Notes: generated by a model from the sequence alone, not told the origin. Counted from the first letter of the stretch, positions 17,260 through 52,550 are shown. The stretch is DNA of 64,000 nucleotides from Polyangiaceae bacterium (GCA_043755175.1 JAYUUB010000002.1:12067-76066); one strand, 5' to 3'. A program made the numbers and translations.

Positions 17260-17262
17260 GCG

Positions 17263-19017
<1,755 letters not shown>

Positions 19018-19102
19018 CTAACGGTTAGTCAACTGCGACTACACAAGAGTTACAAAACGGGCGGGCGGCTGGAGTCAGCGCGTCGCGAATCAGAGCGCCG
19101 GA

Positions 19103-19645
19103 TCAGGTGGCGGTCGAAGCATCGCGAAGACCCCTGAGGCGGGCCCTCGCGCTGCCGTCGATGACCCGATCGCCGATGCGTGTGACCACGCCGGCGATGA
19201 GGCTCGGATCGACCGAATGGGTGATGGTGACTTTGTTACCGGTCGCTTTCTCGAGCTCGGCTTTGAGGCGGTCGATGTACGTTTCCGTCAGGGGAGCGGC
19301 GCTCGTGACGACGGCGCGAACGACCTTCGCGTCGTGATCGACGAGACGGGCCAAGTGACGCGCGATGTCGGGGAGCGCACGGAGGCGACGGCGATGCGCG
19401 ACGAGCCTCAGCGTGCGCTGAGCCGTGTCGGACGCGCCGAGCTTCGTCGCGATTTCGACCAGAATGGCCTTCTTCGATGCGTCGGGTACGACCGGGCTCT
19501 CGAGCACGTTCTTCAGCTCGGCGCTCTCGGCGTAGGCCGCCGCGAAGTCACCGATCTGGGTCGAGAGCGCGGCGAGGTTGCCCTCTTCTTTTCCGAGATC
19601 GAAGATCGCCTTCGCGTAGCGTCGAGCGATGTTGTCGTAGCTCAC
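19103..19645 (-). CDS. atpH: F-type ATP synthase subunit delta (OSCP)
   Basis: 180 aa. The GTG start overlaps the atpF stop (GTGA at 19642-19645). ARRYAKAIFDLGKE...LIAGVVTRIGDRVIDGS is typical of delta. Confidence 0.9.
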   Translation of the reverse strand: MSYDNIARRYAKAIFDLGKEEGNLAALSTQIGDFAAAYAESAELKNVLESPVVPDASKKAILVEIATKLGASDTAQRTLRLVAHRRRLRALPDIARHLARLVDHDAKVVRAVVTSAAPLTETYIDRLKAELEKATGNKVTITHSVDPSLIAGVVTRIGDRVIDGSARARLRGLRDASTAT

Positions 19646-26737: not shown

Positions 26738-26919
26738 GGGGATTCGGTTTTCGCGAGAGCCGGCTTCTCAAATCAGTCCGCGACCAGGACTCGGTTCTCC
26801 GAGGCTCGGTCGCAGTAGCACGACGTCCGCGTCGATGAGTGGTGAGCCCGCTCTCTTTGCCGGTTCGTTCGTTCGATTGTCGCAGTTCTTTTGGTGCACC
26901 GAGGTTGACCGAGTCCCCC

Positions 26920-28437
26920 ATGACGGTTCGACGAGATCCCGCCCCCGACGCGTTCCTGCTCGCCATCGAGCACACGCGTTCGCTATCGCCTGCCACGTTC
27001 GACCAATGGTTCGCGAGTGTCGCGTTCGACGACCTGACCGACGGCGTACTCACGCTTCGGGTGCAGAACGAGTTCGTCCAAGAGTGGGTGCGTGACAACT
27101 TTCTCCCGACGCTCGCGGGCAAGCTCCGAGAAATCACGGGTCACTCGATACAGATCGCCTGGGTTCTCGATTCGAAGCTCGAGCACCCGATCGCGGTGGG
27201 CGATGCATCGGCGCCGATTCGTCCGCGCGCGCTCGTCAGCCGCCAGCAGGTCGCCATGCCTCCTCCGATGCAGGCCGCGCTCGCGTCGCACGCGTACGGC
27301 TCATCGCCGTCGCTTCCCGGAAACGGCCACGGCGCGTGGTCTGACGACGCCGCCCCGCCCAGCTCGCGCAACCGCGCCGCAGCGCTCCCTGTCGGTGTCG
27401 GACCCATCACCCTCGAAGATCTCAACCCGAAGCAGACCTTCGCAAACTTTGTCGTGGGTCCATCGAATCAGCTCGCCCATGCCGCCGCCATCGCGGCCGC
27501 GGGTGGCGGCGGACGCCGCTACAACCCGCTCTTCATCTGCGGCGGCACGGGTCTCGGCAAGACCCACCTCATGCACGCGATCGCTCACCGGATGCGGAGC
27601 GAACGGCTGACCGCGCGCATCCTCTACATTTCGGCAGAGCGCTTCACGAACGAGTTCATCACGGCGATTCAACATCACAAGATGGATGAGTTCCGAACGC
27701 GGTACCGATCGGCTTGCGACCTTCTCCTCGTCGACGACATCCAGTTTCTCGCAGGTCGCGAGCAGACGCAGGAAGAGTTCTTCCACACGTTCAACGCCCT
27801 GCATGGGCAAGACAAACAAATCGTCGTCACGAGCGACAAGTATCCACAGAACCTCGAGCGAATGGAGGAGCGCCTCGTCTCTCGATTCTCGTGGGGCCTC
27901 GTCGCAGACATTCAGGTTCCCGAGCTCGAGACCCGGGTCGCGATCGTTCGCAACAAGGCCGCCATCGAGGGCATCTCGCTAGAAGACGATGTCGCGTTGT
28001 TCCTCGCCCAGATGATCCGTTCCAACGTGCGTGAGCTCGAAGGGACGCTCATCCGTCTCGCGGCGAAGTCGTCGCTCACCGGGCGCGCCGTCGACATGGC
28101 GTTCGCCAAGAGCGAGCTGGCGGCCACGAGCTCGGCGCGGCCCCAGATGATGAGCGTCGAAGACATCCAGCGCGCCGTCTGTCATCACTTCCACCTCCGC
28201 TCGAGCGAGCTCGTCTCGAAAGACCGACACAAGAGCGTTGCCTTCGCGCGGCACGTCGCGATGTATCTCTGCAAGCAGCGTCTGAAGTGCAGCTTTCCGG
28301 AGCTGGGTCGCGCTTTCGGAAACCGCGACCACACGACGGTCATGAGCGCGGTGCGAAAGATCGAAGCGCAACGCGACACCGATCCCGAGGTGAGAGCTCA
28401 TCTCGAAGCGCTCGAGCGAAAGCTCGCCGACGGCTGA
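26920..28437 (+). CDS. dnaA: chromosomal replication initiator DnaA
   Basis: N-terminal domain I (FDQWFASVAFDDLTDGVLTLRVQNEFVQEWVRDNF), AAA+ motifs (NPLFICGGTGLGKTHL, LLVDDIQFL) and the C-terminal DNA-binding helix (VAFARHVAMYLCK...LGRAFGNRDHTTVMSA). ATG 26920 is preferred over track start 26839. Confidence 0.97.
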   Translation: MTVRRDPAPDAFLLAIEHTRSLSPATFDQWFASVAFDDLTDGVLTLRVQNEFVQEWVRDNFLPTLAGKLREITGHSIQIAWVLDSKLEHPIAVGDASAPIRPRALVSRQQVAMPPPMQAALASHAYGSSPSLPGNGHGAWSDDAAPPSSRNRAAALPVGVGPITLEDLNPKQTFANFVVGPSNQLAHAAAIAAAGGGGRRYNPLFICGGTGLGKTHLMHAIAHRMRSERLTARILYISAERFTNEFITAIQHHKMDEFRTRYRSACDLLLVDDIQFLAGREQTQEEFFHTFNALHGQDKQIVVTSDKYPQNLERMEERLVSRFSWGLVADIQVPELETRVAIVRNKAAIEGISLEDDVALFLAQMIRSNVRELEGTLIRLAAKSSLTGRAVDMAFAKSELAATSSARPQMMSVEDIQRAVCHHFHLRSSELVSKDRHKSVAFARHVAMYLCKQRLKCSFPELGRAFGNRDHTTVMSAVRKIEAQRDTDPEVRAHLEALERKLADG

Positions 28438-33470: not shown

Positions 33471-34154
33471 TCAGTTCGGCGCGTCGCTCGTGACCTGGAG
33501 GATCGCGTTCGTGAAGGTCGAGATCTCGAAGGTCGCGAAACCGTCTTCTGTCTTCGCGGGTGCGATGATCTTCCAGGTGAGGGTCTCTTTGCCCTTCGCG
33601 TCGGTCGCCGTCTCGCCGATCGCGAGGTTCGGCGATGCGATCTTCGCGGTCGGCAGCCGGAGCACGAAAGTCGGGCCTTTCGTCGTGATCGTCGAGAAGA
33701 TCTCGGCAGGAGGGATTTGGCCCTGGAGCCGATAGAGCGTGCCTGCGCCACCCTTGGCCTTCTTGGCCTTCTTGTCGATCATGAAAGTTATCAAGATCCC
33801 TCCGCCTTCGCTCAGCGCAAACTCGGGGATCCGCATGCTCGCGCCTTCGGTTCCGAGCTCGAGCTTCGCCGAGGGCGAGGCGCCAAAGGTGTTGGTGATC
33901 TTCTCGGCGTTCGAGAAGCTCACGCCCGGACGCCCGCTCGGCTTCGGTGTGGAGGGACCTTCGGCCGACGCAGACGGAGCGGGAGCGCCGGCGCTGGCCG
34001 TCGGCTCGGGCTCGGCAGTGTGAGCAGGAGCGGTCGCGGTGGCCTCGGGCTCCGCCTTCGGCTCGGGCGTCGGCGCCGAACAGCCTCCGAGCAGCCAAGA
34101 TGCCAACAGAACGATGCTTGCGGAGTGGAGTCGTTTTCGCGTTGTCATTGGCAT
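33471..34154 (-). CDS. hypothetical lipoprotein
   Basis: Start at ATG 34154 or 34148. The lipobox is LLASWLLGGC. A Pro/Glu/Ala-rich linker leads into a beta-rich domain. I recognise no family. Confidence 0.6.
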   Translation of the reverse strand: MPMTTRKRLHSASIVLLASWLLGGCSAPTPEPKAEPEATATAPAHTAEPEPTASAGAPAPSASAEGPSTPKPSGRPGVSFSNAEKITNTFGASPSAKLELGTEGASMRIPEFALSEGGGILITFMIDKKAKKAKGGAGTLYRLQGQIPPAEIFSTITTKGPTFVLRLPTAKIASPNLAIGETATDAKGKETLTWKIIAPAKTEDGFATFEISTFTNAILQVTSDAPN

Positions 34155-34339
34155 GCCTCTTTTTGATGGATCGCCCGAATGTACGGGGTTGGGCCGACGG
34201 GCCGCGGTCCAGCGTTTCGTCTGCTCGAGCCACACCCGAACGGCTTACGATTCTTCGGAGCTGGAGAAAGAGACCCGACCCACGTTTCGACGCGCGAATC
34301 GCGTCGAGTGGCTCAGGTCGCCTCGAAAGGGCCGCCAGC

Positions 34340-35050
34340 TCAACGGTTGCCCTTCACCACGTTCATGAGCGCAGAGAAGTCGTCGAGCGATGCCTTCGGG
34401 ATGTTGAGCGAGAAGCGTGATCGGAAGGGGCCTTCCGAGACGGTCCCTTGGTAGACGATGGGCGTCTGCCCTTTGTTGGGCAGGCCCTGGAACAGCTTTT
34501 CCATTTTCCCGCTCACGTCGAGCATGTCGTCTTCGCTGCCGCCGCCGCTGCCTCGAATGAAGAACACCGCCGCAAGCGCTCGAAAGCTTCCGAGCGTCAT
34601 GAACCCGCCCGATGCGACCTTGAGCGACTTGAGGCTTTGGGCGTCTGCGCGACCGTCGACGGTCTTGTCTTTCGGCGCACCGCTCTTGACCCCGAGCAGG
34701 CGCTCGACGAGCTCTTCGCGGTTTCCACCGAACGCGACCCAAGAGCTGTCTCCGTCGGCCATCACCAAAATGTAGAAGGTGACCGAGGCCGGAGCTTTGT
34801 CGCTCTTCGCGTCTTTGGCGTCTTTCTTCGGATCGCGTTTCGCGTCGGGCCTCTTGTCGTGCTTCTTTCCAAAGACGACGCCGATGTCCATTTCGAAGGC
34901 GCCCTTGCCGAGCTTCGCGGGCGGCGCCGGAGTCTTCACGGTCGGAACCACGTCGCTCAGGGCTTTCTTCAGCTCCTTCTGCATGCCGGGCTGGGCGTAC
35001 GCGCCGGCCGCGTCTTTCAGCCACTTCGCGACAGCATCAGCCTTCTGATT
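34340..35050 (-). CDS. C-terminal segment of the interrupted lipoprotein gene (or an independent ORF from ATG 34984)
   Basis: It is in the same frame as 35051-36307. The 22 codons between the TAG at 35053-35051 and ATG 34984 keep coding-like composition (17/22 G/C at third positions by my count). Confidence 0.5.
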   Translation of the reverse strand, partial: NQKADAVAKWLKDAAGAYAQPGMQKELKKALSDVVPTVKTPAPPAKLGKGAFEMDIGVVFGKKHDKRPDAKRDPKKDAKDAKSDKAPASVTFYILVMADGDSSWVAFGGNREELVERLLGVKSGAPKDKTVDGRADAQSLKSLKVASGGFMTLGSFRALAAVFFIRGSGGGSEDDMLDVSGKMEKLFQGLPNKGQTPIVYQGTVSEGPFRSRFSLNIPKASLDDFSALMNVVKGNR

Positions 35051-36307
35051 CTAGCCGATGAGGTTCCAACCCATCTGCGTGTCGAAGATGGCCCCGATCT
35101 TCTCGGACGCCGATTTCGGCGTCGAGGGCTTGGAGATCATGCGGTTACCGGTCGCCGAGACGATCTGTTCGCCCTTCAGCAGCGGGAAATCGAGCAGAGC
35201 GCTCAGCTTCTTGCGCTCGGCCTCGCTGCCGACCTTCAGCTTCGCGAGCCCCCCTTCGATGAGGTCTTTGCCGACACGCAGCATCGGGGCGTAGTCGTTC
35301 GGGTTGACGATTCTTCCGAAGGTGACCGAGTCGGCGTCGGCCGGCGCTTGGAAGAAGAGAGCTGGAAACGGTCCGCTCATGGCTGCTGCGGTTTCGCGCG
35401 CGATCCACGACGTCTTGCTCTTGTAGTCGACCGCGCCCTCGACGTTCACGCCTCCTTGCGGCGAGAGCGTCACGTTGAAGCTCACCTTGTCGACGTCGGC
35501 GAAGAGCGCGATGGCTTCGTCGGTGAGGCCGCGTGCGCCGGCCTCGATGGCTCGGTCGAACTGCGGCTCGCCGATCCCGAGCTCGCTTCGCGCGAGACGG
35601 GGCGCTTGTGGCGCGAGCTTGGCGAGGTCGGCTCCGAATCGCGCGTTGAGCGGCGACACCAACAGCTCGAGGGTGACGTCGCTCGCAGGCGAGGCTTGAG
35701 TCGAGAGGGTGCGTGTGAGGTAGCCGCCGAGCGCTTGAACGTCACGCTCGGACGGACCGCAGACCGCCCGCGCAGGTACCGGGCCCGACGCGACCGCGAC
35801 GACGCAGAAGGCCTTCGCGCGCTCTCCTCCGAACGCCCACATTCCGGGCGCGAGCTCGCGCGTCGCACCGAGCGCGATCTTGGCCTCGTCGAGCGACTTG
35901 AGCCCCACGGCGACCGCCATCATCGGCTCGGGGGGGCCATCGGTGGGCATGGCAGCCACGAAGTCGACCGGTGCGTCGAGCGCGACGACCGACGCGGCCT
36001 TCGAGGCGTCGACGTCGAGTCGAAGCCCACCGCGACCGGTGAGCTCTCGGAGTGTCGCCGTCGTCAGATCGCTCTGGGCGCCGCCGAAGCCGAGGGTCGC
36101 GATCGTCGCGGTCAGGCTTTTCGCACGGCCCGTGGCAAAAACGCCGGTGGGGGCGGGGACAGGGGAGAGATCGAACGCGGGAGCGGCGACCGCTGTCGCG
36201 GTGACGGCCGGCTTGGGTGCCGCCTGCTCGACGCGCGGAGGAGCAGAAGAACAGGCCGCGGTCGCCAGGATGACGGATAGCGAGATGAGGCGAAAAGTCG
36301 TTCGCAT
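35051..36307 (-). CDS. hypothetical lipoprotein, N-terminal segment ending at an in-frame TAG
   Basis: Start ATG 36307 (MRTTFRLISLSVILATAAC, lipobox). The ORF terminates at TAG 35053-35051, and the downstream ORF continues in frame. Confidence 0.6.
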   Translation of the reverse strand: MRTTFRLISLSVILATAACSSAPPRVEQAAPKPAVTATAVAAPAFDLSPVPAPTGVFATGRAKSLTATIATLGFGGAQSDLTTATLRELTGRGGLRLDVDASKAASVVALDAPVDFVAAMPTDGPPEPMMAVAVGLKSLDEAKIALGATRELAPGMWAFGGERAKAFCVVAVASGPVPARAVCGPSERDVQALGGYLTRTLSTQASPASDVTLELLVSPLNARFGADLAKLAPQAPRLARSELGIGEPQFDRAIEAGARGLTDEAIALFADVDKVSFNVTLSPQGGVNVEGAVDYKSKTSWIARETAAAMSGPFPALFFQAPADADSVTFGRIVNPNDYAPMLRVGKDLIEGGLAKLKVGSEAERKKLSALLDFPLLKGEQIVSATGNRMISKPSTPKSASEKIGAIFDTQMGWNLIG

Positions 36308-36381
36308 GGCCCGAGCCCATACACCCGATCGCCGGGCGTCGAAACGGGGAAGGGGCAGTGAAATGCCCTTCGCGCGAGGGG

Positions 36382-36957
36382 TCAGCCGCCCTTTCTGGCG
36401 ATGAACGGCACGATGCGATCGACGAACGCCTGTTTGTGGAAGCGGTCGAACTCGGACCAAGTCGTCAGCGTTCGAGGGTCTTTCACTCGGTCGAGAAACA
36501 CGATCCCGTCGAGGTGGTCGGTCTCGTGCTGAAAGGTCCCGGCCGTGAGACCGGTCACTTTTCGACGCTCTTCGTTTCCGTGTCGATCCCAGCTCGTGAC
36601 CTCGAGATCGGCGAACCGCTCGACCACGCCGCGAAGGTTGGGGACGCTGAGGCAGCCTTCGTAGTTCTCGAAGGTCTCGTCACCGACGGCCGTCAAAACC
36701 GGGTTGACCAAAATGGTCAGTGGCACATTCGGTTTGTAAGGGTAACGGGGATTGTCCTTCACTTCGATTGCACAAACCCGAACCGGCATGTGCACCTGCG
36801 GCGCCGCGAGGCCGGCTCCGTTCGCATCGCGCATGGTCTCGACGAGATCGTCGATGAAGGTTTGCATCGCGCCAGACGCGAGCTCTTCGCGCGTCACTTC
36901 GCGCGAGCGCTGACGGAGCACGGGGTGACCGAGTTGGGCGATCTCGAGGAGTGTCAC
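36382..36957 (-). CDS. def: peptide deformylase
   Basis: Motifs GAGLAAPQV, EGCLSVP and QHETDHLDG. The GTG start at 36957 overlaps the upstream stop (GTGA). The track ORF extends to 37293 but its N-terminus is Arg-rich junk. Confidence 0.9.
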   Translation of the reverse strand: MTLLEIAQLGHPVLRQRSREVTREELASGAMQTFIDDLVETMRDANGAGLAAPQVHMPVRVCAIEVKDNPRYPYKPNVPLTILVNPVLTAVGDETFENYEGCLSVPNLRGVVERFADLEVTSWDRHGNEERRKVTGLTAGTFQHETDHLDGIVFLDRVKDPRTLTTWSEFDRFHKQAFVDRIVPFIARKGG

Positions 36958-39137
36958 CCGCGACAAGGTAGCAGAGCGTCGGGCTCGTGCGCGCTCACGG
37001 CCCGCCCCTCGAATGCGGCGTCGAGAGCCGCGACGCGCGTCGGACCGTCGGGATCGAGCTTGGGGGTGAGATCGCGGATCATCGGATCGGAGGGGCCGAC
37101 GAACGCTCGAGGGATCGCCGCGAGGAGCAGAGCGAGAATGAAGAGCGGTCCGGCCCAAAGGAGGTCGTTTCGCCGCAGGTCGGGGAGAACGCCTCCGAAG
37201 GGCTCGAGATACTTGCTGGAACGCCAGGCGCGCGGTTGTGCGCCGAACACGACGCGCGCGGTGCGCGCTGCAGCGGCCACCGAAAGGAGCCAACCGAGCG
37301 TCCCGAGACCGGTCAGCCAGGGGTTGCGTCCGAGCGAGCCGAGCAGTCCGACCAGAGGCCCGATGACCCCCGGAAAGATGGGCGCTGCGAGCCCAATCGT
37401 GCCGAGCACCAGCGCCGCCGACAAGACTGGCGCGCTTCTACCGAGCCCCGACAAGCGCTCCAAATCGTGCGTTCCGACGTGAACCACCGCCATCTTCGTG
37501 GCGACGTAGAACAAGGACGCCACGACTGCGTGGGCGCTCACGAGACCGATGGCAGACTCGATGCCGTGTGGCGTCAGCGAGAACGCGAGAAGCAGAATGA
37601 GCCCACCGCGGGCCACCGCCAGGTGGGCTCCGAGTCGCACGATGTCACGCTCGACCAGCGCCCACGCCCCGCCGACCACGAGCAACGCGACGCCGATTGC
37701 TGGCAGGCTCTCTGCGCCCCACCGCGCCCCGTCGAGCTCGATCGAGAGACAGAGTCGCAAGATCGAGTAGCCCGAGAGCGCCGGAAGGAGCGCCCCGACG
37801 AGCACGGTCTTCGCCGGTGAAGATTCGGCGCCCTCGGAGGGGCTCCCGAGATCTTTGAGCCAGCCGTGAACGGGAACCAGTGGAAGAAACGCGGCGCACC
37901 CCAGGAACGAGAGGAGCCACGCCGCGCGATATCCGGGCAGGCCGATCATCGGTAGGAGATCGTTCACGAAGTGGGCGCGCGCAAGATCGGGAAAGGCATA
38001 GACCGCGGCGGCTTCGGAGCCATCGACGAGGTAGCAACCCCCCGTGTGGGTCGACATCCACCGAACGGCGACTGCGAGCGAGACGGTCGACGAGATGCCC
38101 ACGATGGCGAGCTTCGCGCTGGCCTTCTTCGACGAGTCCCAGGTGAGGTAGACCGCGCCGGCGATCGTGAATGCCCAACCGAGGAGGAGAAGCAGGCTCG
38201 TCTGCGCGACGAGGACGAGCACCGCTCCGCTCACGACGATCGCTGCGCCACCAATGGCTCGTCGCGCTCCGCCGAGGCGCGTGTCGGTCGTCAGGATCGC
38301 TGTGAGCCCGACGACCGTCGCCGCGAGCAACGCGGCGATCGAGAGCCCGTCGACCCCGAGGAACAGCTCGAGGCCGTTCCGACCGTCGAGGACCGAGCGC
38401 TCGATGAACTGGAGGCCGTCGTTGCCGTCGCGTTTTCCGAGCTCGCGATCGAAGCTCGCGAAGAGCCACGTGGCGAGGGCGCACTCGATGAACATGATCG
38501 CGCCGGCCGCGATTCGAAGGGTGCGATCGCCCAAAGACCGGACGAAACGCGATGAAAACGCGAGGAGTGCCACCAAGAACGGAATCATGACCAGGAGTGA
38601 GAGTGCGTGTCGCGCGAGCCCGAGGCGGCGTTGCGCGACGACCCCGATGAGCTTGGGCGCGTCGACCACCTTCGCGTCGGGTTGGGCTGCGTCGGAGTCG
38701 ACGACGAGCTCGGCGTAGAGCTCGCTCGCTCTCACGTCGGCCGAGTGCCACGTCACGAAGTACTTCCGCGATTGTCCTGGAGCGATCGACGAACGCGTGC
38801 CGCCTTCGGGCTGTGCGACGAGACCGCTCGGGCTGCGCGGATCGTCGTCGGCATCGAGAACGTAGACCCGATTGATCGTCAGAGGTCCCGGTCCGGAGTT
38901 GCGGACCTCGAACGCGCCAGTGTAGTCGCCGCCCTCACCGCGAAGGAGCCTCACGGGTTCGCCGATCGGGCTACGGACCTCGAGCTGGCCGCGCGGGCCC
39001 TTCGGGGGAACCGAGACCCGCTTCTCGACTTTGAAGCGCTCGGCCCCCATGTGCGCATGGGCGACGACGGGCGAGGCGACGAAGGCCATCAAGACGGCGA
39101 TGACGAAGAAAAGCGCACGCATGCCATTGTGCTTCAT
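36954..39137 (-). CDS. polytopic membrane protein: N-terminal secreted beta-rich domain plus a degenerate NuoM/ND4-like antiporter-type domain
   Basis: Signal peptide (ALFFVIAVLMAFVASPVVAHA) and an approx. 150-aa Ig-like segment (AFEVRNSGPGPLTINRVYV...IAPGQSRKYFVTW). By-eye NuoM-like blocks follow: LFLGVDGLSIAALLAATVVGL, LLLGWAFTIAG, LPLVPVHGWLKDLG and ERDIVRLGAHLAVARGG. Confidence 0.55.
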   Translation of the reverse strand: MKHNGMRALFFVIAVLMAFVASPVVAHAHMGAERFKVEKRVSVPPKGPRGQLEVRSPIGEPVRLLRGEGGDYTGAFEVRNSGPGPLTINRVYVLDADDDPRSPSGLVAQPEGGTRSSIAPGQSRKYFVTWHSADVRASELYAELVVDSDAAQPDAKVVDAPKLIGVVAQRRLGLARHALSLLVMIPFLVALLAFSSRFVRSLGDRTLRIAAGAIMFIECALATWLFASFDRELGKRDGNDGLQFIERSVLDGRNGLELFLGVDGLSIAALLAATVVGLTAILTTDTRLGGARRAIGGAAIVVSGAVLVLVAQTSLLLLLGWAFTIAGAVYLTWDSSKKASAKLAIVGISSTVSLAVAVRWMSTHTGGCYLVDGSEAAAVYAFPDLARAHFVNDLLPMIGLPGYRAAWLLSFLGCAAFLPLVPVHGWLKDLGSPSEGAESSPAKTVLVGALLPALSGYSILRLCLSIELDGARWGAESLPAIGVALLVVGGAWALVERDIVRLGAHLAVARGGLILLLAFSLTPHGIESAIGLVSAHAVVASLFYVATKMAVVHVGTHDLERLSGLGRSAPVLSAALVLGTIGLAAPIFPGVIGPLVGLLGSLGRNPWLTGLGTLGWLLSVAAAARTARVVFGAQPRAWRSSKYLEPFGGVLPDLRRNDLLWAGPLFILALLLAAIPRAFVGPSDPMIRDLTPKLDPDGPTRVAALDAAFEGRAVSAHEPDALLPCRG

Positions 39138-41455
39138 GCGTCGTCCTTCGGAGATGCGCTCGATCGTGACGCGAGCCGTGCGAGCAAGTCGAGTGGCGCG
39201 TCGAGGAGTTGCTCGAGCCCCAGGATCAACCGCGCGAGACTTCCAGGCGATCCGTCGTCTCGCACGCGGTTCTCACGCGGAGTCTTCGCTTCGCAGAACC
39301 ACTCGAGAGCACCGCGCCTGTCGCGTGCTGCCCAGTCGGCGGGCCTGCCCGACGAGTAGCGAGCGCGCGCCAGATGCCCGGCGATCGCAGCCGGAATCGC
39401 GAGCGCCGCAAACACGAGCACGCGCGCCGTGGTCGTTTGGCCGACGGGTTGTTCGAGCACGCCGAGCATGACGCCGACCAACGGGCCTGCGACGCACGCC
39501 GCGGTGGCGATCGCCGAGGCGGTTCGATCGGTCGGGGCCGACGAGCCCGGGGCCGCGAGGCTCGCGCCTCGAGCGCGCTGTGAGTCGGTCGAGCTCTTCT
39601 TGGCGCGTCCCTGGCCTTCGGCCGCGCTCTGCTTCGCCGTATTCTTGCCGGCCTGCGGAGTCGCAGCCAGTGGAGATTCGGTGAGATCGGTGGGAGATGC
39701 GACTGCATGCGAGACGCAAAAGTAAGCGCGATACACGGCGTGAGCGAGGGCTGCCCAAGCCGCCGCGGCGAGGAGCGCGATCGCCACACCGAGGGCGCCG
39801 CCACGCGCGAGAGCTGCGGCACCGATGGCTCCGACGCCGACGAAGACGCCGACAAAAGGAACGGGAGAGCCAGCTAGCGCCAAGACGGCGATCGCGAGCG
39901 ACGTTCCCTCGCCTACGCGAGAGCCTTCACCGAGGCCAGCGCCGATCTCGATCTGCGCGAGGGGCTCGAGCTCGTCGACGTCGTTGGTCGCACGTTCGAG
40001 AACGATCCCGATCGCCACGAGTGAAAACGCGGCGGCTACCGCGAGTGACATCGCACCGGCGGAAGCCGAAGAAGCGCTCGCGGCCAAGACGAGCGCGACG
40101 ACGGTGCGCGACGATTCGGCGACGAAGGTCGTGCTACGAAACGCACGGGCCGATCGCAGCGCAGCGAAGAGCGCGACGCCGAGAGCTAGCAGGGTCACCA
40201 CGCCCCCGAGGCTCGGGCTCGCAGCGAAGATCCCCGAGAGGCGTCCGCCGATGACCGCCGCGAGGATGGAGGTAAAGCCACCAGCGAACCCGACGACGCG
40301 CGGATCGTCGGTCATCGCTCCCGTGCGCCGCTCCCGCGCGGAGGAGCCGCCGAGCGCCATCACGAGCCCGAGACCTGCGAGCCCGAACGCGATGCAGGCG
40401 CCGTCGACGATGCGAAACGATCCGAGCTGCCTCTCGGCGAACGTGCTCGCGCTCGCATCGAGCTGACGGTCGATCTCGCGGAAGGTGATCGATGGACCCA
40501 CCGCTCGGACTTCGACCTCTTCGTTTGGCGGAAAGCGTACTTGCTGGATGAGCGCGATGTCCCTGGAATCGCCGCCGAGAATGGTGCCTCCGCCGGGGTC
40601 GATCGTCACCTTCTGAAGGCCGGCGGGAAGCTCGGCACGAACGAACGGCGCTATGGCGAACGGCTCGGTCCTCGGAGTGAGCTGCGAGTCGTTGGCGAGA
40701 CCGAGGTACACCTTCGCGCCCGGTCGTGTGAGCACCGTCAGGTAGCTCTTGTCGCCCACCTTCGGCGGGTGAACTCCGGCGACGTCTTTGGTCGCCGACT
40801 CGGTGGGCTCTTTGGAGCTCGCCTCGAACGGAGCTCGGTAGTCGGAAAGATATCGACGCCCGTCGAGGTAGCGCCCGCCCAACCCCCAGAACACCAACCC
40901 TGAACCGAGCGCGAGCATCAGCGCACCCGCGGTGATCGTACCCAAGGCTCGAGCGCCGGCCCGGGGCGATGTCGCACCGACGAGCACGGCGACGACGATT
41001 CCGAAGGCGGTCCAACCCGTGAGCAGGGTCGCGAATCCGTCGCCGAGCACCGACACCAGGAGCGCCGAGACCGCAAGGCCGATGCCCGCCTGTGAGGCCG
41101 GCGTGCGTCTGCGGAGCGAGGGAGTGAGCACCGAAAAGAGCCCGAGCACGAGGAGAGCGAACGCGAGCACCGCGCTCTTCGTGTCGAGCCAGAAGCCGAG
41201 GTTTGCGTCGAGCGATCCCACGCGCGCGAGGCGGAGCGCATGTGAAAACACGCGTTGGCCCGACAAGAGCGGTCGGCCGGCGATCGCCAGCGCGGCCATC
41301 GCAGCCACGATCGACGCTCCGACGACGCGGGCCGCGTTGGGGCCAGCCGTCTTCGACATGCCTGCGCCGCGCGCCGTGACGAGGCTCGCGAGTGCACCGA
41401 GCGCGACGAGCAGAGGGACCAGATAGAGCGGAATGGAGCTCAGGACCACGTTCAT
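39134..41455 (-). CDS. polytopic membrane protein: degenerate NuoL/ND5-like N-terminal region with an inserted PEGA-like soluble domain
   Basis: ATG 41455 overlaps the sigma-factor stop (ATGA). By-eye NuoL-like blocks are LGFWLDTKSAVLAFALLVLGLFSV and LLTGWTAFGIVVAVLVG (canonical GWEGVG). A soluble insert of about 150 aa carries SYLTVLTRPGAKVYLG...LTP...ELPAGLQKVTI. Further Ala/Gly-rich TM helices follow. Confidence 0.5.
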   Translation of the reverse strand: MNVVLSSIPLYLVPLLVALGALASLVTARGAGMSKTAGPNAARVVGASIVAAMAALAIAGRPLLSGQRVFSHALRLARVGSLDANLGFWLDTKSAVLAFALLVLGLFSVLTPSLRRRTPASQAGIGLAVSALLVSVLGDGFATLLTGWTAFGIVVAVLVGATSPRAGARALGTITAGALMLALGSGLVFWGLGGRYLDGRRYLSDYRAPFEASSKEPTESATKDVAGVHPPKVGDKSYLTVLTRPGAKVYLGLANDSQLTPRTEPFAIAPFVRAELPAGLQKVTIDPGGGTILGGDSRDIALIQQVRFPPNEEVEVRAVGPSITFREIDRQLDASASTFAERQLGSFRIVDGACIAFGLAGLGLVMALGGSSARERRTGAMTDDPRVVGFAGGFTSILAAVIGGRLSGIFAASPSLGGVVTLLALGVALFAALRSARAFRSTTFVAESSRTVVALVLAASASSASAGAMSLAVAAAFSLVAIGIVLERATNDVDELEPLAQIEIGAGLGEGSRVGEGTSLAIAVLALAGSPVPFVGVFVGVGAIGAAALARGGALGVAIALLAAAAWAALAHAVYRAYFCVSHAVASPTDLTESPLAATPQAGKNTAKQSAAEGQGRAKKSSTDSQRARGASLAAPGSSAPTDRTASAIATAACVAGPLVGVMLGVLEQPVGQTTTARVLVFAALAIPAAIAGHLARARYSSGRPADWAARDRRGALEWFCEAKTPRENRVRDDGSPGSLARLILGLEQLLDAPLDLLARLASRSSASPKDDA

Positions 41456-42138
41456 GCGAGCGACTTTTTCTCCATCTCCGCGCTTGAGGCTCGTGGCTCG
41501 TTCGCTTGGTCGGTCGGTGTCGAGCTCTCGCTTCGTTGTGCGCCGCCCCCCCATCCCCGGTCGGTGAGGCAACTCCGAAGCGCGTGGATCGCGCGAGCGG
41601 CTCGGGATTTGATCGTTCCGAGGGGCACGCCGTCCCGCTCTGCCATCTCCGGGTACGACAGCCCTTCGAAGAAAGCGATGATCAACGTGTCACGCTGCGC
41701 CTTCGGTAGAATATTCATCGCATCGCGCACGGCTTTGCGTTCGCGCTCGAGCGTGAGGCGCGTCTCGGGATCGTCGACGGCGATGCCGAGCGCCTCGACC
41801 TCTGGTCGAAGATCGTTGTCGGCGATTTGGGCGCGGCGGGTGCGCCTGCGCGTTCGATCGAGCGAGAGGTTGCGAACGGTGGTGAGGAGCCAGGCGGCGA
41901 CGGTGCCGCGCTCGGCCTGGTACTGATGCGCGCGCTCGACGACGGCCATGAACGCGTCGTGAACGATGTCTTCGGCCTCTTCGGCGTCACGGACGATCTT
42001 CAGCGCGAGCCCGAGCGCCGTCTTGGCATACCGATCGTACAGGTCTCCGACCGCCGTGGCGTCACCGCTACGAAGCCTCTCGAGCGCAGCGATGTCGGCA
42101 TCGTCTCGCTCAGCCCTGTTGTCGTCCCCAAGGACCAT
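41452..42138 (-). CDS. ECF-type RNA polymerase sigma-70 family factor
   Basis: Region 2 (DAEEAEDIVHDAFMAV...AWLLTTVRNLSLDRTRRR) and region 4 (LPKAQRDTLIIAFFEGLSYPEMAERDGVPLGTIKSRAARAIHALR). Start ATG 42138 is preferred. Confidence 0.9.
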   Translation of the reverse strand: MVLGDDNRAERDDADIAALERLRSGDATAVGDLYDRYAKTALGLALKIVRDAEEAEDIVHDAFMAVVERAHQYQAERGTVAAWLLTTVRNLSLDRTRRRTRRAQIADNDLRPEVEALGIAVDDPETRLTLERERKAVRDAMNILPKAQRDTLIIAFFEGLSYPEMAERDGVPLGTIKSRAARAIHALRSCLTDRGWGGGAQRSESSTPTDQANEPRASSAEMEKKSLA

Positions 42139-42220
42139 GGTCGGTCTGCCCCCGTGGCGCTCACACCACAAGGTCGCGGGTTATGCCGGGTTTCCTGGTC
42201 GGCGGCTAGCCCCGCGGGCT

Positions 42221-43015
42221 TTACGCATCGGGGGTCGTGCTCGTTTCGGTCATCGGCGCGACGAGAGCTTGCGGTTCCGACGGACCGTCGGTCGGGACGA
42301 CGCCGATCGCGCTCTTTCTGAGAGCGCGCCACACGGCGCCTCTTCCGTCACCCGTCACGGCCGAATAGCCGATGACGCCGCGGCCTACGTCTCTCTTCAA
42401 CCGGTCGAGCACCAACCGCTCTTGAGACCGCGGGACTTTGTCGAGCTTGGTCGCCACGAGCACCACCGAGAGCGGTCTCAGAGTCCGCTCGCGCGGAGCC
42501 AGGGCGAACTCGACCAGCTCGAGATCGTCTTCCTCGAGACCGCGGCGCGCATCGAAGAGAACCACGATCGTCGCCAAGGACGCACGTGTTCGAAGGTAGC
42601 CCTCGATGAGCTCTGCCCACTGCTTGCGCTCGTCTTTCGAACGTTTGGCGAAGCCGTAGCCCGGAAGATCGGCGAGGACCAAAGCGAGTCCGTCTCTCGC
42701 GCGAATTTCGAACAGATTCACCTGCCGCGTACATCCGGGGGTCGAGCTCGTTCGCACGAGCCCGCGTCGCTCGACGAGCGAGTTGATCAGGCTCGATTTG
42801 CCGACGTTCGAGCGGCCACAAAAAGCGATCTCGGTGTAGGTGGGCGGCGGCAGCGAGCCTCCACCGATGCCGACCGCAGCGATGAACTTGGCGTCGACGA
42901 TTTGCAGTCCTTCCTCGCCGACGACGATGGGCGTCGAGGCGCCGGGCTTCGCTCCTCCGCCACCCGACTGTGGGGCCGCCGTCTTCTTGGGGTGGTTGTG
43001 CTTCGCAGCGCTCAC
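42221..43015 (-). CDS. engB: ribosome-biogenesis GTPase EngB/YihA
   Basis: G1 GRSNVGKSSLINSL, G3 DLPGYG and G4 ATKLDK. The GTG start at 43015 overlaps the upstream stop (GTGA). It has basic/Gly-rich N-terminal and extra C-terminal extensions. Confidence 0.85.
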   Translation of the reverse strand: MSAAKHNHPKKTAAPQSGGGGAKPGASTPIVVGEEGLQIVDAKFIAAVGIGGGSLPPPTYTEIAFCGRSNVGKSSLINSLVERRGLVRTSSTPGCTRQVNLFEIRARDGLALVLADLPGYGFAKRSKDERKQWAELIEGYLRTRASLATIVVLFDARRGLEEDDLELVEFALAPRERTLRPLSVVLVATKLDKVPRSQERLVLDRLKRDVGRGVIGYSAVTGDGRGAVWRALRKSAIGVVPTDGPSEPQALVAPMTETSTTPDA

Positions 43016-43374
43016 TTGATCTCCTCTTCGGCGCGGGCCGTGACCTCGAAGTGAGGCTTGCAGCGTTCGCACTGACAGAGCGCTCGCAGATACCTGAACG
43101 AGTAGATACCCGTCGAATGGCTGTCGCCCCACGCGAAAGAGAGGCCGTAGTTTCCGACGCGCTCGATCTGGCGAAGCTCGAGAGGCAGCGAGCCCGTGAC
43201 GTCGACACGACGGATCGTCCCGCCGTGACCCTGGCAATGGGCGCATGGGCAGTAGCCGCGGAGGACATCGTGCGGCAGCACCGAGTGATGTCCGTCTGCC
43301 CAGGTGATCTCCATGACCATCGCACCGTGCGGGGCCTTGACGCCGGTGGGCGTGATGCTCGGCTCGTTCGCCAT
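43012..43374 (-). CDS. DUF971-family small protein (gamma-butyrobetaine-hydroxylase-like N-terminal domain)
   Basis: 120 aa with ITWADGHHSVLPHDVLRGYCPCAHCQGH...FAWGDSHSTGIYSFRYLRALC, the DUF971 pattern. Confidence 0.7.
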   Translation of the reverse strand: MANEPSITPTGVKAPHGAMVMEITWADGHHSVLPHDVLRGYCPCAHCQGHGGTIRRVDVTGSLPLELRQIERVGNYGLSFAWGDSHSTGIYSFRYLRALCQCERCKPHFEVTARAEEEIK

Positions 43375-43519
43375 GGCCGGGACCTTACCACGGGCCCTCG
43401 ATTCAGGCTTTGAAGCGCCACCGAAGACTTTCTGCGCCGCTCTCGGAACGCGTATACTTTCCTTGGGTGATCGAGGCGCTCTGCTGCGCTCGGCTTTTCA
43501 CGACGACTACGAGGTCACG

Positions 43520-44032
43520 ATGAGCAGCTCTGCGCGTCCGTCGGATTTGGCCTTTCTGTCGGTCGCGGCCGCGGTGACGGCCTGCGCGATGAGCTGCGCA
43601 CAAGGATCGAGCGACGTCATCGGAAGCGGTGGCTCCGGCGGCGCTTCGACCGGGCCTTCGACCACGGCGCAGAAGGGCGCGGCGACGACGGGGCCGTCGA
43701 CCACCGGCCCTTCGACGGGCGCGGTGACGAGCGGACCATCGACGACCGTCACGAGCGGTCCCTCGGGATCGACCGTGAGCTCGACGAGCGTGGTCTCTTC
43801 GTCGGCCGTGGCTTCATCGTCGAGCGGCGGCGGCACCTGTCACGATCCGTGCACCGTCGGCACGGCGCTGACACCCCTCGCGTGCCTCACGGCTCTCGCG
43901 ACGGAGCTTTGCGCGCAAGACGTCTGCGGTAACACCGGATTGGAGTACTGTTGCACGAGCAACTGGGATGCTGGCTGCGTGGCGGGCGCCGGCAACTCCA
44001 CCACGTGTCTCCTCGGCGGGTTCTTTTGCTGA
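43520..44032 (+). CDS. secreted or lipoprotein-like Ser/Thr/Gly-rich protein with a Cys-rich C-terminal module
   Basis: ATG 43520. N-terminus FLSVAAAVTACAMSC, then about 90 aa of GPSTT-type low complexity, then 10 Cys in the last approx. 65 aa (CHDPC...CAQDVCGNTGLEYCCTSNWDAGCV...C...C). Confidence 0.6.
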   Translation: MSSSARPSDLAFLSVAAAVTACAMSCAQGSSDVIGSGGSGGASTGPSTTAQKGAATTGPSTTGPSTGAVTSGPSTTVTSGPSGSTVSSTSVVSSSAVASSSSGGGTCHDPCTVGTALTPLACLTALATELCAQDVCGNTGLEYCCTSNWDAGCVAGAGNSTTCLLGGFFC

Positions 44033-50043: not shown

Positions 50044-52392
50044 TCAGCGCTTCGGTCGTCGACCAGGCTTCTTGTGGGCTCTGCCTGCCGGGGTCGCCGA
50101 GCTCTTGCCCTTGGGGCTACCGCTCGGCATCGCCGGGTGATTCGCGGTTCGCCCGCTCTTCTTGGTCGCGCGCCTCGCGGGCGTGACGGCCTTGCCTTCA
50201 CGGTCTTCGCTTCCGCCGATGCGCCGTCCGTAGACGGTTCGCCGGAGGATCGCTACGTCTTCGATGATGACCGAGACGCTGTCGCCGATGTCGATGCGAT
50301 CGCCGGACCGAACACCGACCATGGCCAAGCCTTGCTCGTCGAGCTCGTAGACGTCGGTCCCGAGGGCTTCGCTGCGAACGAGCACCTCGACGTAAGGCTC
50401 GTCGATCGTGACGAAGACGCCGCTCCCGACGAAACCGGTCGCCGTACCCGTGTACAGATCGCCGATCTTGTCTTTCATGAAGAGGGCTCGATAGAGATCG
50501 ACCACTTCGCGCTCGACCTCCATGCCACGCCGCTCACGCTCCGACGCGGTCACCGCGGCGAGGCGCAACGTCTCGACGGCGGCTTCGGATCGGTCGACCT
50601 TCTCGTTGCGGAGCACCGCGCGAACCGCACGGTGAACGACGAGGTCGGGGTAGCGACGAATCGGCGAGGTGAAGTGGAGGTAGGCCTGCGATGCGAGGCC
50701 GAAGTGGCCGATGTTCGCCGTGTCGTACACGGCCTGCTTCATCGAGCGAACGAGCAGCGTATCGAGGATCGATCGACGCGGATGCGCGTGCGTCTTCCGG
50801 AGAAAGCTCGAGAGCTTTTTCGGATCGAGCGCATCTTCTGGATCGAACGGGACGTCGAGCCGCGCGCACATGGCCGCGAAGCGCTCGATCTTCTTCGGAT
50901 CGGGCGCGGCGTGGTTTCGGAAGATCGTCGGCACGCCGTGCTCGACGAGAAAGGCCGCCACGGTTTCGTTGGCGAGAAGCATCAGCTCTTCGACGATCTG
51001 GTAGGCCTTCGCCACGCCCGGATCCCGCGCTCGCTTCACGGCGTCGAGCGGTCCTTTCGTGACGGGATCGACGACGATCTTCGCTTCGGGGAGGTTGAAG
51101 TCGAGCGCACCTCGCTGCATGCGCTTCGCGCGAAGAAGGCTCGAGATGTCGCGGAGCACGCGCAGATCGTCGCGCATCGCTTCGGCCGCTTCGCTGACCT
51201 GAGGGACCGTCGTGAGACCAAGCGCGCGCGCGACCCCTTCGTAGGTGAGCTTCGCGCGAGAGCGCATGAAGCCTTCGATGACCTTCGATTGCGTGACGAT
51301 GCCCGTCGCATCGAGGGTCATCTCGATGCACAGACAGAGCCGAACGACGTCGGGAAGGAGCGAGCAGAGGTTCGACGAGAGAGCTCGTGGAAGCATCGGA
51401 ATCGCGCGATCGGGTAAGTAAATCGAGTTGCCACGGGCGAGCGCCGCGGTGTCGAGCGCGCTGCCCGGGGTCACGTAAGCCGACACGTCGGCGATCGCGA
51501 CCCACACCCGGTACGTCCCGTCTTCTTCGCGAACGGCCCACAACGCATCGTCGTGGTCGCGCGCGTCTTCGGGGTCGATCGTGGGCAGAGGAAGATGGGT
51601 GAGGTCGACGCGCCCTTCGAGCACGTGCGCTGCGACCTCGCGTCCGAACGCCTCGGCCTCTTGCACTGCCGCGACGTCGTGCGGCTCGACGATCGAGTGG
51701 ATGGCGAGGATCTTCCGCACTTCGACGTCGGGTGTGCCAGCCGGACCGAGCACTTCTTCGAGCACGCCTTCTGGATTTTCGCCGGGGCTCATCGGAAAGC
51801 GCGTGATCCGCGCGATCGCGACGTCGCCGTCGTTGCCGTCGCGAGGCGCATCGGGCATCGCCGCGAGGTTCGCCGCCGGAACGAGCACGACCGGACCGCG
51901 AATGCGCGAGTCGTCGGGCTCGATCCACGAGCTCTTCCCACGGCGCCTCAAGGTTCCTGAGATGCGTGCGGCGCGACGCTCGACAACCTCGGAGACGGCG
52001 CCTTCGGGGCCGCGGTGCGAGGTGGCGACGATGCGCACGACGACCTTGTCACCGTGGAGCGCGCCACCGACCGCTTCGGCCGGAATGAAGATGTCGGGTG
52101 CATCTCCCTCGGTCGCGACGAACGCGAAGCCGCGTGCATGCGCGTTCAAGAAGCCGGTGATGGCCTTGTCGCGCGACATCTTCGACTGCTTGTCGGAGAG
52201 CGCGAAACGCTGTCCGGGCAACGGAGTGACCGTGCCGTCGAAGACCAGGTCGTCGAGCACGCGGCCCAGCGCCGGAATCATCTGGGGGGCGATGGCGAGG
52301 CGGTCGGCCAGCTCCTGAAAGTGGAGGGGCCTCTTGAACCCGGTGAGCAGGTCGATGACCGACGCTCGTCGGGGTGTCTGTGAATCCGTCAT
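50044..52392 (-). CDS. rnr: ribonuclease R
   Basis: RNB-domain motifs (DPEDARDHDDALWA, FTSPIRRYPDLVVHR), a C-terminal S1-like segment and a basic tail. ATG 52392 is preferred. Confidence 0.93.
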   Translation of the reverse strand: MTDSQTPRRASVIDLLTGFKRPLHFQELADRLAIAPQMIPALGRVLDDLVFDGTVTPLPGQRFALSDKQSKMSRDKAITGFLNAHARGFAFVATEGDAPDIFIPAEAVGGALHGDKVVVRIVATSHRGPEGAVSEVVERRAARISGTLRRRGKSSWIEPDDSRIRGPVVLVPAANLAAMPDAPRDGNDGDVAIARITRFPMSPGENPEGVLEEVLGPAGTPDVEVRKILAIHSIVEPHDVAAVQEAEAFGREVAAHVLEGRVDLTHLPLPTIDPEDARDHDDALWAVREEDGTYRVWVAIADVSAYVTPGSALDTAALARGNSIYLPDRAIPMLPRALSSNLCSLLPDVVRLCLCIEMTLDATGIVTQSKVIEGFMRSRAKLTYEGVARALGLTTVPQVSEAAEAMRDDLRVLRDISSLLRAKRMQRGALDFNLPEAKIVVDPVTKGPLDAVKRARDPGVAKAYQIVEELMLLANETVAAFLVEHGVPTIFRNHAAPDPKKIERFAAMCARLDVPFDPEDALDPKKLSSFLRKTHAHPRRSILDTLLVRSMKQAVYDTANIGHFGLASQAYLHFTSPIRRYPDLVVHRAVRAVLRNEKVDRSEAAVETLRLAAVTASERERRGMEVEREVVDLYRALFMKDKIGDLYTGTATGFVGSGVFVTIDEPYVEVLVRSEALGTDVYELDEQGLAMVGVRSGDRIDIGDSVSVIIEDVAILRRTVYGRRIGGSEDREGKAVTPARRATKKSGRTANHPAMPSGSPKGKSSATPAGRAHKKPGRRPKR

Positions 52393-52550
52393 TCGTTTTT
52401 CGTCTTTTCTCTTTCTCAATCAATCGAACCCGGAGCACGGGCGTTCGCGCTTCGGGGTCCCTTCTAGTGGCAAGGGACGCAGCCCGGAGCGTTCACCTGA
52501 CGATGGCGCTCCCGTGCCGACTGCCCCGTGGTATGCGAGGCTCTCGGTCG

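Follow-up and report, generated by a model that had tools for sequence, protein, structure and literature searches.

Can an antiporter-like subunit of complex I persist once the residues of its proton relay have been replaced, and if so, as what? The question is raised by a gene in a 64,000-nucleotide stretch of DNA from a Polyangiaceae bacterium (GCA_043755175.1, JAYUUB010000002.1:12067-76066), here called the window, in which all positions are counted from the first nucleotide. The gene lies on the minus strand and encodes a protein related to NuoM (ND4), which we refer to as M-like. A sequence-only reading of the window had described it as a NuoM/ND4-like protein with a secreted N-terminal domain, whose fold seemed to be kept while its charged relay looked dismantled. 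Profile searches, a predicted structure and a family-wide alignment now agree with that description, and we regard the gene as very probably a degenerate NuoM. The explanation towards which we lean, if only slightly, is that M-like is a non-pumping NuoM derivative, part of a membrane scaffold formed with its NuoL-like partner (L-like) and detached from the redox part of complex I.

Identity and predicted fold of the M-like protein

The gene and the segments of its product are as follows.

36954..39137, minus strand: NuoM/ND4-like gene, very probably degenerate, 727 amino acids (aa) plus stop (open reading frame (ORF), translation, Pfam, NCBIfam, Foldseek)
39054..39137, minus strand: Sec-type signal peptide, residues 1-28 (basic n-region, hydrophobic core, AHA before HMG)
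38622..39053, minus strand: periplasmic beta-rich immunoglobulin-like (Ig-like) domain, residues 29-172 (AlphaFold2 (AF2) strands, profile search)
37056..38621, minus strand: predicted 14-helix antiporter-like core, residues 173-694 (AF2 confidence mostly >90; Foldseek against NuoM)

The protein thus consists of a Sec signal peptide, a beta-rich periplasmic domain of ~145 aa and a full-length 14-helix NuoM/ND4 core. It passes the Pfam model PF00361 (Proton_antipo_M) with E=1.3e-17 and 64.4 bits against a cutoff of 21.5, and it matches the NCBIfam model TIGR01972 (NDH_I_M) with E=4.2e-36, residues 179-691 corresponding to model positions 1-483 of 486. Despite this whole-model coverage, the score of 124.7 bits fails the curated cutoff of 263.8, and M-like falls far under the cutoff of every NuoM equivalog model in NCBIfam. 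A phmmer search against the PDB returned NdhD and NuoM chains.

The AF2 model has a mean predicted local distance difference test score (pLDDT) of 81, with most of the transmembrane (TM) core above 90. Its best Foldseek matches are the NuoM chains 8e9g_M, 8qby_M and 6tjv_D (TM-score on target 0.87-0.90), and against mycobacterial, Paracoccus, cyanobacterial, plant and E. coli NuoM chains the TM-score on target is 0.84-0.90. The prediction is a 14-helix antiporter fold with discontinuous TM7 and TM12, and its core includes the beta-hairpin between TM2 and TM3 (the VDG block) and a C-terminal periplasmic helix. Both the hidden Markov model searches and the structure prediction therefore bear out the NuoM/ND4-like identity proposed from the sequence alone, the former by homology to NuoM and the latter by a predicted NuoM fold.

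Replacement of the relay residues

In ND4, the central axis comprises a lysine of TM7 (LysTM7) paired with a glutamate of TM5 (GluTM5), a central lysine of TM8 (LysTM8) and a glutamate of TM12 (GluTM12), and it is essential in any mechanism (PMC10212512). The relay positions of M-like were aligned with canonical NuoM by MAFFT and phmmer, and the codons were checked.

38172..38174, minus strand: Ala322, site of the conserved TM5 Glu (MAFFT)
37887..37889, minus strand: Phe417, site of the conserved TM7 Lys (alignment)
37860..37874, minus strand: retained P422-x-H424-x-W426 of the broken helix TM7 (alignment with canonical NuoM)
37779..37781, minus strand: Ala453, site of the central TM8 Lys, preceded by Pro452 (alignment)
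37608..37610, minus strand: Arg510, site of the TM10 His in the AYSSxSHMG block (alignment)
37356..37358, minus strand: Pro594, site of the TM12 Glu (alignment)

The GluTM5-LysTM7 ion pair is absent, its sites being occupied by Ala322 and Phe417, the very residues to which the sequence-only reading had pointed. A pairwise phmmer alignment moves the TM5 site to Thr324; by either alignment, the helix contains no acidic residue. LysTM8 and GluTM12 are likewise absent, replaced by Ala453 and Pro594. For the lysine of TM8, the LLK lysine, the earlier reading had named proline as the replacement, which needs correcting, as the aligned residue is Ala453 and Pro452 only adjoins it; the loss of the TM12 glutamate had not been mentioned. 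The histidine of the AYSSxxHM block is Arg510 in M-like. Proper alignment restores none of the missing Glu and Lys residues. Of the relay sites compared with the NuoM of Sorangium, only that of the second histidine is unchanged (H536).

Other parts of the core are retained. The VDG block, matched in the earlier reading to DGLS, has G261, D263 and G264 invariant. In the broken helix TM7, P422 and W426 are invariant and H424 is nearly so in the alignment with canonical NuoM; a loop is inserted after this motif, and the earlier reading had noticed extra residues at the HVEAP site. R461 and several structural glycines and prolines are kept as well.

How far the replacements extend was surveyed with one genome per species, 80 of 496 relatives being taken in; labels such as L001 denote these loci, which were sorted by relay residues and gene context.

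T1: relay E K H K H H E; nuoL and nuoN flanking; Sorangium, and Byssovorax-like metagenome-assembled genomes (MAGs) with the same extracytoplasmic function (ECF) sigma gene upstream
T2 (window type): relay degenerate; DUF971 gene, GTPase, usually sigma, L-like, M-like, and no nuoN; L001, L006, L088, L045, L067; Polyangium jinanense, Polyangium sp. 6x1 and two Polyangium MAGs
T3: relay degenerate; PDZ-fused NuoH-like, L-like, M-like, convergent on atpG/atpA; Labilithrix and >30 MAGs; L002, L003, L024-L062

The pattern E/K/H/K/H/H/E is intact in the 18 T1 (Sorangium-type) loci and in 24 ordinary NuoM proteins, whereas GluTM5, LysTM7, LysTM8 and GluTM12 are replaced in M-like and in ~45 related loci. 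The replacements vary freely among the relatives: A, Q, S, T or C in TM5; F, L, M, A or V in TM7; A, T, S, M or G in TM8; and P, Q, S, A or T in TM12. Substitutions that differ from lineage to lineage fit relaxed constraint on the relay sites and not selection for a new residue. On these grounds the canonical proton relay has probably been lost from M-like.

Partly decayed intermediates are found in L025 (E K H K Q H T), L028/L029, L024, L027, L044 and L057, which suggests that relay loss was stepwise and repeated. In a neighbour-joining tree the canonical Sorangium-type clade has all the degenerate proteins as its sister group, within which the window type branches among T3 proteins; long-branch attraction is likely, and the tree is not relied on here.

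Constraint on the degenerate proteins

The degenerate genes persist as full-length ORFs in ~45 loci at 23-59% identity. In seven close degenerate pairs, the ratio of nonsynonymous to synonymous substitution rates (dN/dS) is 0.08-0.21 (L035/L037 0.08; L046/L048 0.13; L022/L023 0.20), and canonical pairs have 0.17-0.43. Judged by these substitution rates, the degenerate genes are evidently under purifying selection and are not pseudogenes. A decaying, functionless pseudogene left behind by the loss of complex I would explain why every functionally defining residue is gone, why the score lies under the NuoM family cutoff and why nuoN has been lost. It is nevertheless a highly improbable account of the gene, given the persistence of full-length frames, the low dN/dS, the strong conservation of loop and N-domain motifs, and the maintenance of both translational coupling and gene fusions described below.

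Where the constraint acts is seen from column conservation, calculated as the mean pairwise column identity per region.

Degenerate genes: TM helices 0.37, periplasmic loops 0.49, N-domain 0.43
Ordinary NuoM: TM helices 0.64, periplasmic loops 0.44, N-domain not applicable
T1: TM helices 0.88, periplasmic loops 0.79, N-domain 0.67

The constraint has moved from the helices to the periplasmic regions. TM5, TM6, TM8 and TM10, the best-conserved helices of working NuoM, fall from 0.77-0.86 to 0.32-0.42 in the degenerate set, and the hairpin, the periplasmic loops and the N-domain hold nearly all positions conserved in that set, which are common to T1. The same figures bear on the possibility that M-like now uses its fold to transport or channel another substrate along a new pathway. 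The discontinuous TM7 and TM12 are retained (P422, H424, W426, G593, G600), and the helix interiors offer ionisable residues (R510, R625, K342, E527, K548). Yet the helices are the least conserved part, no polar residue within the membrane is newly conserved across the degenerate set, and the old relay sites vary freely, so that we consider a new transport function quite improbable.

The N-terminal region

The AxA-HMG junction at the end of the signal peptide is conserved across close homologues, AF2 predicts a helix at residues 4-21, and the peptide is presumably cleaved. For the domain that follows, AF2 places ~10 beta strands over residues 27-169 at moderate confidence (pLDDT 50-80). The signal peptide and beta-rich domain that had been read from the sequence are thus upheld.

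The suggestion that this domain is DUF1573/Ig-like in flavour holds at one level and not at another. All Pfam scores are below threshold: DUF4232 gives E=0.023 and 15.3 bits against 27, CARDB 0.15 and 12.7 against 22.7, and DUF1573 E=0.21 and 12.1 bits against a cutoff of 26.1; no NCBIfam match was found. Membership of a family (PF07610, PF15780, NF012200) is therefore not borne out, the scores being under the cutoffs. A profile of the N-domain, searched against 1.84 billion representative proteins, gave 449 matches, comprising NuoM-fused copies and giant tandem-repeat proteins whose repeats Pfam and NCBIfam class as choice-of-anchor D / HYDIN-VesB-CFA65 Ig / ASH / DUF1573. Among them, P0035 is matched with E=6e-106 over 20 repeats, and P0037 is matched as well. 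These profile matches support a distant relationship to choice-of-anchor D / ASH / DUF1573 at the superfamily level.

In complex I structures, the N-terminus of NuoM is periplasmic. An exported N-domain is thus topologically sensible, and it is consistent with the periplasmic position of the beta-hairpin after TM2.

Two further proteins, P0048 (1240 aa) and P0069 (1474 aa), carry the Ig-like domain in the middle of the chain, with NuoM after it. The score of P0069, 383.7 bits, is over the NuoM cutoff. In both, NuoL may have been fused to a working NuoM.

Origin from a canonical nuoLMN locus

The best guide to the ancestry of M-like is the locus of Sorangium cellulosum, in the order GBBH-like_N/DUF971, GTPase, nuoL (863 aa), nuoM (749 aa) and nuoN (507 aa); nuoL-nuoM lies at L007 5584-10432, with nuoM at L007 8183-10432, and L008-L021, L038 and L053 are of the same type. 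Sorangium NuoM shares with M-like the signal peptide and the Ig-like N-domain, including N80, G82, P85, L86, R90, W130 and other residues, as well as the RxDGNDGxQF hairpin and the YLVDG...PELxR, PxGxRW and SKYLEPFGG loops. The locus shares with the window the upstream GBBH-like_N and GTPase genes and a preceding L gene whose product carries a beta insert. The proteins are 31% identical and differ where the relay is concerned: Sorangium NuoM keeps GluTM5, LysTM7, LysTM8, two histidines and GluTM12, and is followed by nuoN, whereas M-like has Ala, Phe, Ala, Arg and Pro at relay sites and the window has no nuoN.

The canonical, fully charged NuoM proteins of Byssovorax and other Polyangia carry the same N-domain and the same loop insertions. 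Since canonical Sorangium-type subunits carry both the N-domain and the insert, these accessory domains are ancestral in the complex I of Polyangia, and the Ig-like domain is not special to the degenerate protein. Its two upstream genes show the window locus to correspond in position to nuoLMN, with nuoN gone. We found no description of degenerate NuoM or NuoL, or of the periplasmic domains, in myxobacteria in the literature searched. The periplasmic additions on the working NuoM and NuoL of Sorangium-type myxobacteria are a target for structural work.

T3 loci resemble the window type in the architecture of M-like, in relay loss and in an L-like partner with a beta insert. They differ in having a third gene, for a NuoH-like protein with an N-terminal PDZ fusion (PF00146, E=6.6e-20 in L002), in an L protein that keeps the lateral helix and TM16, in the absence of the ECF sigma gene, and in chromosomal position, by the ATP synthase operon. 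The PDZ-NuoH-like genes stand just before the L-like/M-like pair:

L002 153-1775: PDZ-NuoH-like gene
L003 1-1605: PDZ-NuoH-like gene
L030 4180-6123: PDZ-NuoH-like gene

Genes between the H-like and L-like genes in some loci (an esterase, a Ser/Thr kinase) were considered as components and set aside as unrelated insertions that are not conserved.

The L-like partner and a probable L-M unit

The gene preceding M-like encodes its L-like partner.

39134..41455, minus strand: NuoL-like partner gene, 773 aa

L-like matches the NuoL model TIGR01974 with E=0.006 only, and its best annotated relative, the 863-aa NuoL of Sorangium, with E=3.8e-47; AF2 and Foldseek give NuoL/ND5 chains as best matches. 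L-like is more decayed than M-like: GWE of TM5 has become GWT, and L-like retains neither the Lys/His motif of TM7 nor the His of TM8 nor the Lys-Asp of TM12. A periplasmic beta-rich insert of ~110 aa follows TM6, as it does in Sorangium NuoL. The C-terminal anchor TM16 is absent from 6/6 T2 L proteins and present in 11/12 of T1 and 26/27 of T3. The clamp on the remainder of complex I has thus disappeared in just those loci that do not encode a third membrane partner beside L and M. C-terminal truncation of NuoL has been reported to make complex I of E. coli fragile (PMC3274701).

The L and M genes are adjacent at every locus with enough sequence, and seven degenerate loci (L022, L023, L055, L061, L046, L048, L057), representing three lineages or more, carry them as a single in-frame fusion. 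The fusions at L022 7723-11586 and L023 8072-12022 come from two Polyangium isolates, and in L046 and L048 TM16 of L stands in for the signal peptide of M. A fusion was accepted only if both matches lay in one frame uninterrupted by a stop and the sequence across the junction had been read. Stop-to-stop ORF length was rejected as a sign of fusion, because high G+C yields long spurious frames. The gene fusions make it likely that L and M function as one physical unit. The side-by-side pairing suggested in the sequence-only reading finds indirect support in them, in the constant adjacency of the two genes and in the 4-base overlaps described below.

Such a unit might also be inert distal ballast on a working complex I, whose NuoN/K/J/A/H core is encoded elsewhere and which runs at a lower proton-per-electron ratio. 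The best-conserved elements are the VDG beta-hairpin and other inter-subunit periplasmic parts, and the locus is positionally orthologous to nuoLMN; myxobacterial nuo genes are known to be split over separate clusters, so that the missing subunits could lie elsewhere (PMC2330069). We think this unlikely. Not only is nuoN missing from all window-type loci, but L-like is also without TM16, the helix by which the distal module is held to the remainder of the complex. In a domino-type mechanism, the protons of NuoN and NuoM exit through NuoM and NuoL (PMC10212512), so that a dead M and L would block pumping and not merely reduce it. As weak evidence, no Polyangium or Labilithrix NuoN is among the 120 matches listed for Sorangium NuoN, in which Sorangium, Byssovorax and Minicystis are present.

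Operon and gene neighbourhood

The genes around the pair are listed below; the coordinates of the last two are those of maximal ORFs, and the GTPase probably starts later.

41452..42171, minus strand: ECF sigma factor gene (Pfam Sigma70_r2, r4_2, ECF)
36382..36957, minus strand: def, peptide deformylase (PF01327, E=3.6e-46)
42221-43246, minus strand: EngB-like GTPase ORF (Pfam; synteny marker)
43012-43374, minus strand: GBBH-like_N/DUF971 ORF (Pfam; synteny marker)

The ATG of L-like overlaps the TGA of the ECF sigma gene as ATGA, the ATG of M-like (39137-39135) overlaps the TGA of L-like in the same way, and the TGA of M-like overlaps the GTG of def as GTGA. By these 4-base overlaps, ECF sigma, L-like, M-like and def would form one translationally coupled run. 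The same gene order, including def, is found in L088 and L006. A scan of 34000-43600 gave no sigma-70-like promoter, and one terminator-like hairpin lies on the minus strand at 34301-34276, past the last gene of the run; both results say little in this phylum. In the 64-kb window, tblastn found no nuo gene other than the L-like/M-like pair, and in particular neither nuoN nor nuoH.

The same ECF sigma gene stands upstream of degenerate and of canonical nuoL-nuoM loci (L016, L017, L020, L038), and it may regulate these nuoL-nuoM-type genes. No anti-sigma gene is evident in window-type loci, and in canonical loci the gap before nuoL is too short for one.

Could L-like and M-like themselves control the sigma factor encoded next to them, as a sensor in the membrane or an anti-sigma module with the periplasmic domains as input? 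The sigma and L-like genes overlap as ATGA in the window; the two also overlap in L006 and L088, and in L001 a gap of 41 bp separates them. A separate anti-sigma gene is lacking, and the periplasmic beta domains are under selection. Against this, neither protein contains a Pfam anti-sigma domain, and L-like begins directly with TM1. The sigma gene, furthermore, also precedes the canonical nuoLMN of the four Byssovorax-type loci just named, and it is absent from Sorangium and from all T3 loci; its link with these genes is thus older than the decay, which also occurs without it. A sensor role for the pair is therefore improbable.

Following def, the window holds a 655-aa lipoprotein-like gene (34340-36307, minus strand) that matches no Pfam model and has an in-frame stop at 35051-35053. 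In L090 (5831-7798), whose assembly encodes an M-like protein identical to that of the window, this 655-aa gene has Ser at the stop and differs only at window position 35052 (A versus C). The stop must reflect a nonsense polymorphism or else an error in sequencing.

At large, the window (G+C ~65%) is a housekeeping region of the chromosome, with dnaA, dnaK and ATP synthase genes. A dnaA / PALP-CBS / sulfatase neighbourhood is common to the window and L088, and its PALP-CBS / sulfatase part is also found in L006. The last two features below are ordinary for myxobacteria and unrelated to the NuoM-like gene.

1636-3471, plus strand: dnaK
16339-20688, minus strand: ATP synthase gene run (atpG, atpA, probably atpH and atpF)
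26839-28437, plus strand: dnaA
46437-48743, minus strand: FHA-GAF-adenylate/guanylate cyclase protein
52374-53732, plus strand: VKOR-DsbA fusion protein

A proposed role for the L-M pair

The scaffold that we favour could have arisen in the following way. The NuoM of the Polyangia ancestor would already have been made with a signal peptide that is cleaved off, an Ig-like domain in the periplasm and extra loops, and its NuoL with a periplasmic beta-rich insert. In the lineage of the window, the nuoL-nuoM-nuoN locus would have lost nuoN, the L protein would have lost its lateral-helix anchor TM16, and the residues of the central proton-relay axis would have become non-ionisable in both L-like and M-like. 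Made from the coupled operon of ECF sigma, L-like, M-like and def, the two proteins would be neighbours in the inner membrane, arranged as they are in complex I and joined by the periplasmic beta-hairpin and loops, as a pair that could no longer relay protons. Selection would maintain the fold and, above all, the periplasmic surfaces of the N-domain and loops, and the L-M scaffold would display its periplasmic domains detached from the redox part.

We infer the physical pairing in this organism, the lack of ion transport, the independence from complex I and the scaffold role from the comparisons above. Taken singly, the independence of the L-M pair from complex I is evenly balanced, and the scaffold role is tentative.

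Several points weigh against the proposal. The AF2 input alignment contained canonical NuoM, so that the retention of the fold is partly built in. Ionisable residues in helix interiors number 12 in M-like and 12 in Sorangium NuoM, and some recur: K/R342, H424 and R461 (conserved in all groups) and R625 (in about half). M-like may, then, contain an unconventional ion path. The dN/dS of the window gene against its nearest DNA relatives is 0.38-0.46, values made unreliable by saturated dS. A complete canonical complex I may coexist with the pair, or the pair may dock onto one; the best 120 matches listed in the NuoN search are all at least 70% identical, which makes that search weak as a test of NuoN absence. 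No assembly among the 80 of 496 relatives gave two loci, but one locus per assembly is weak evidence, and mutual exclusivity of T1, T2 and T3 is only suggested. Finally, the scaffold role is deduced from conservation patterns.

The notion that M-like has fewer buried charges was rejected on the equal counts: specific positions are lost, not charges generally. Lineage-specific Arg, His and Glu residues are scattered through the helices of the degenerate proteins.

For Polyangia lineages as a whole (Polyangium, Labilithrix and uncultured relatives), it is conceivable, if doubtful, that the distal membrane arm became a free-standing complex, of L + M or of PDZ-H + L + M, with no redox or pumping role and kept for a periplasmic function of the Ig-like, beta-insert and PDZ domains. 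If true, these would be the first antiporter-like subunits to survive as pure scaffolds. The supplements of a complex I census paper hold no Polyangia entries. Polyangium strains produce phenoxan, a potent inhibitor of complex I (PMC4758237); to tie the loss of a working pump in Polyangium to that production is speculative.

The series of loci is of use in its own right. Dozens of lineages without the Glu/Lys/Lys/Glu axis of NuoM, and without its equivalent in NuoL, together with intermediates, and with the fold and the contacts between subunits still under purifying selection, amount to a natural mutagenesis series that separates structural needs from proton-transfer needs in complex I. Should the L-M pair be independent of complex I, a respiratory pump module would have been kept as a non-transporting membrane scaffold, possibly a new category. 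There is also a warning for annotation. Database labels vary between 'NADH-quinone oxidoreductase subunit M', 'proton-conducting transporter membrane subunit' and 'hypothetical protein', and in metabolic reconstructions such proteins should not be taken to show that a proton-pumping complex I is present.

Comparison with known antiporter-like subunits

The solved NuoM, ND4 and NdhD structures (8qby_M of Paracoccus, 8e9g_M of Mycobacterium, 3rko of E. coli, and 6tjv_D) have, like the predicted M-like, a 14-helix fold built around two inverted repeats of five helices, in which TM7 and TM12 are broken, and a beta-hairpin between TM2 and TM3. They are 16-24% identical to M-like and differ from it in two respects: none has an N-terminal periplasmic domain, and all carry the Glu/Lys/Lys/Glu axis that M-like is without.

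Antiporter-like subunits have been re-used outside classical complex I, in cyanobacterial NdhD3/NdhF3 with CupA, in DabB with DabA, and in MrpA/MrpD of Mrp. None of CupA, DabA/DUF2309 and mrpB-G was detected by Pfam among the neighbours of the M-like gene, those examined being the ECF sigma factor, L-like, def and the 655-aa protein without a Pfam match. NdhD3/NdhF3, DabB and MrpA/MrpD belong to the same fold family (PF00361) and likewise combine a modified role with an accessory soluble domain or protein. They nevertheless keep the charged axis, and are still ion- or CO2-coupled machines.

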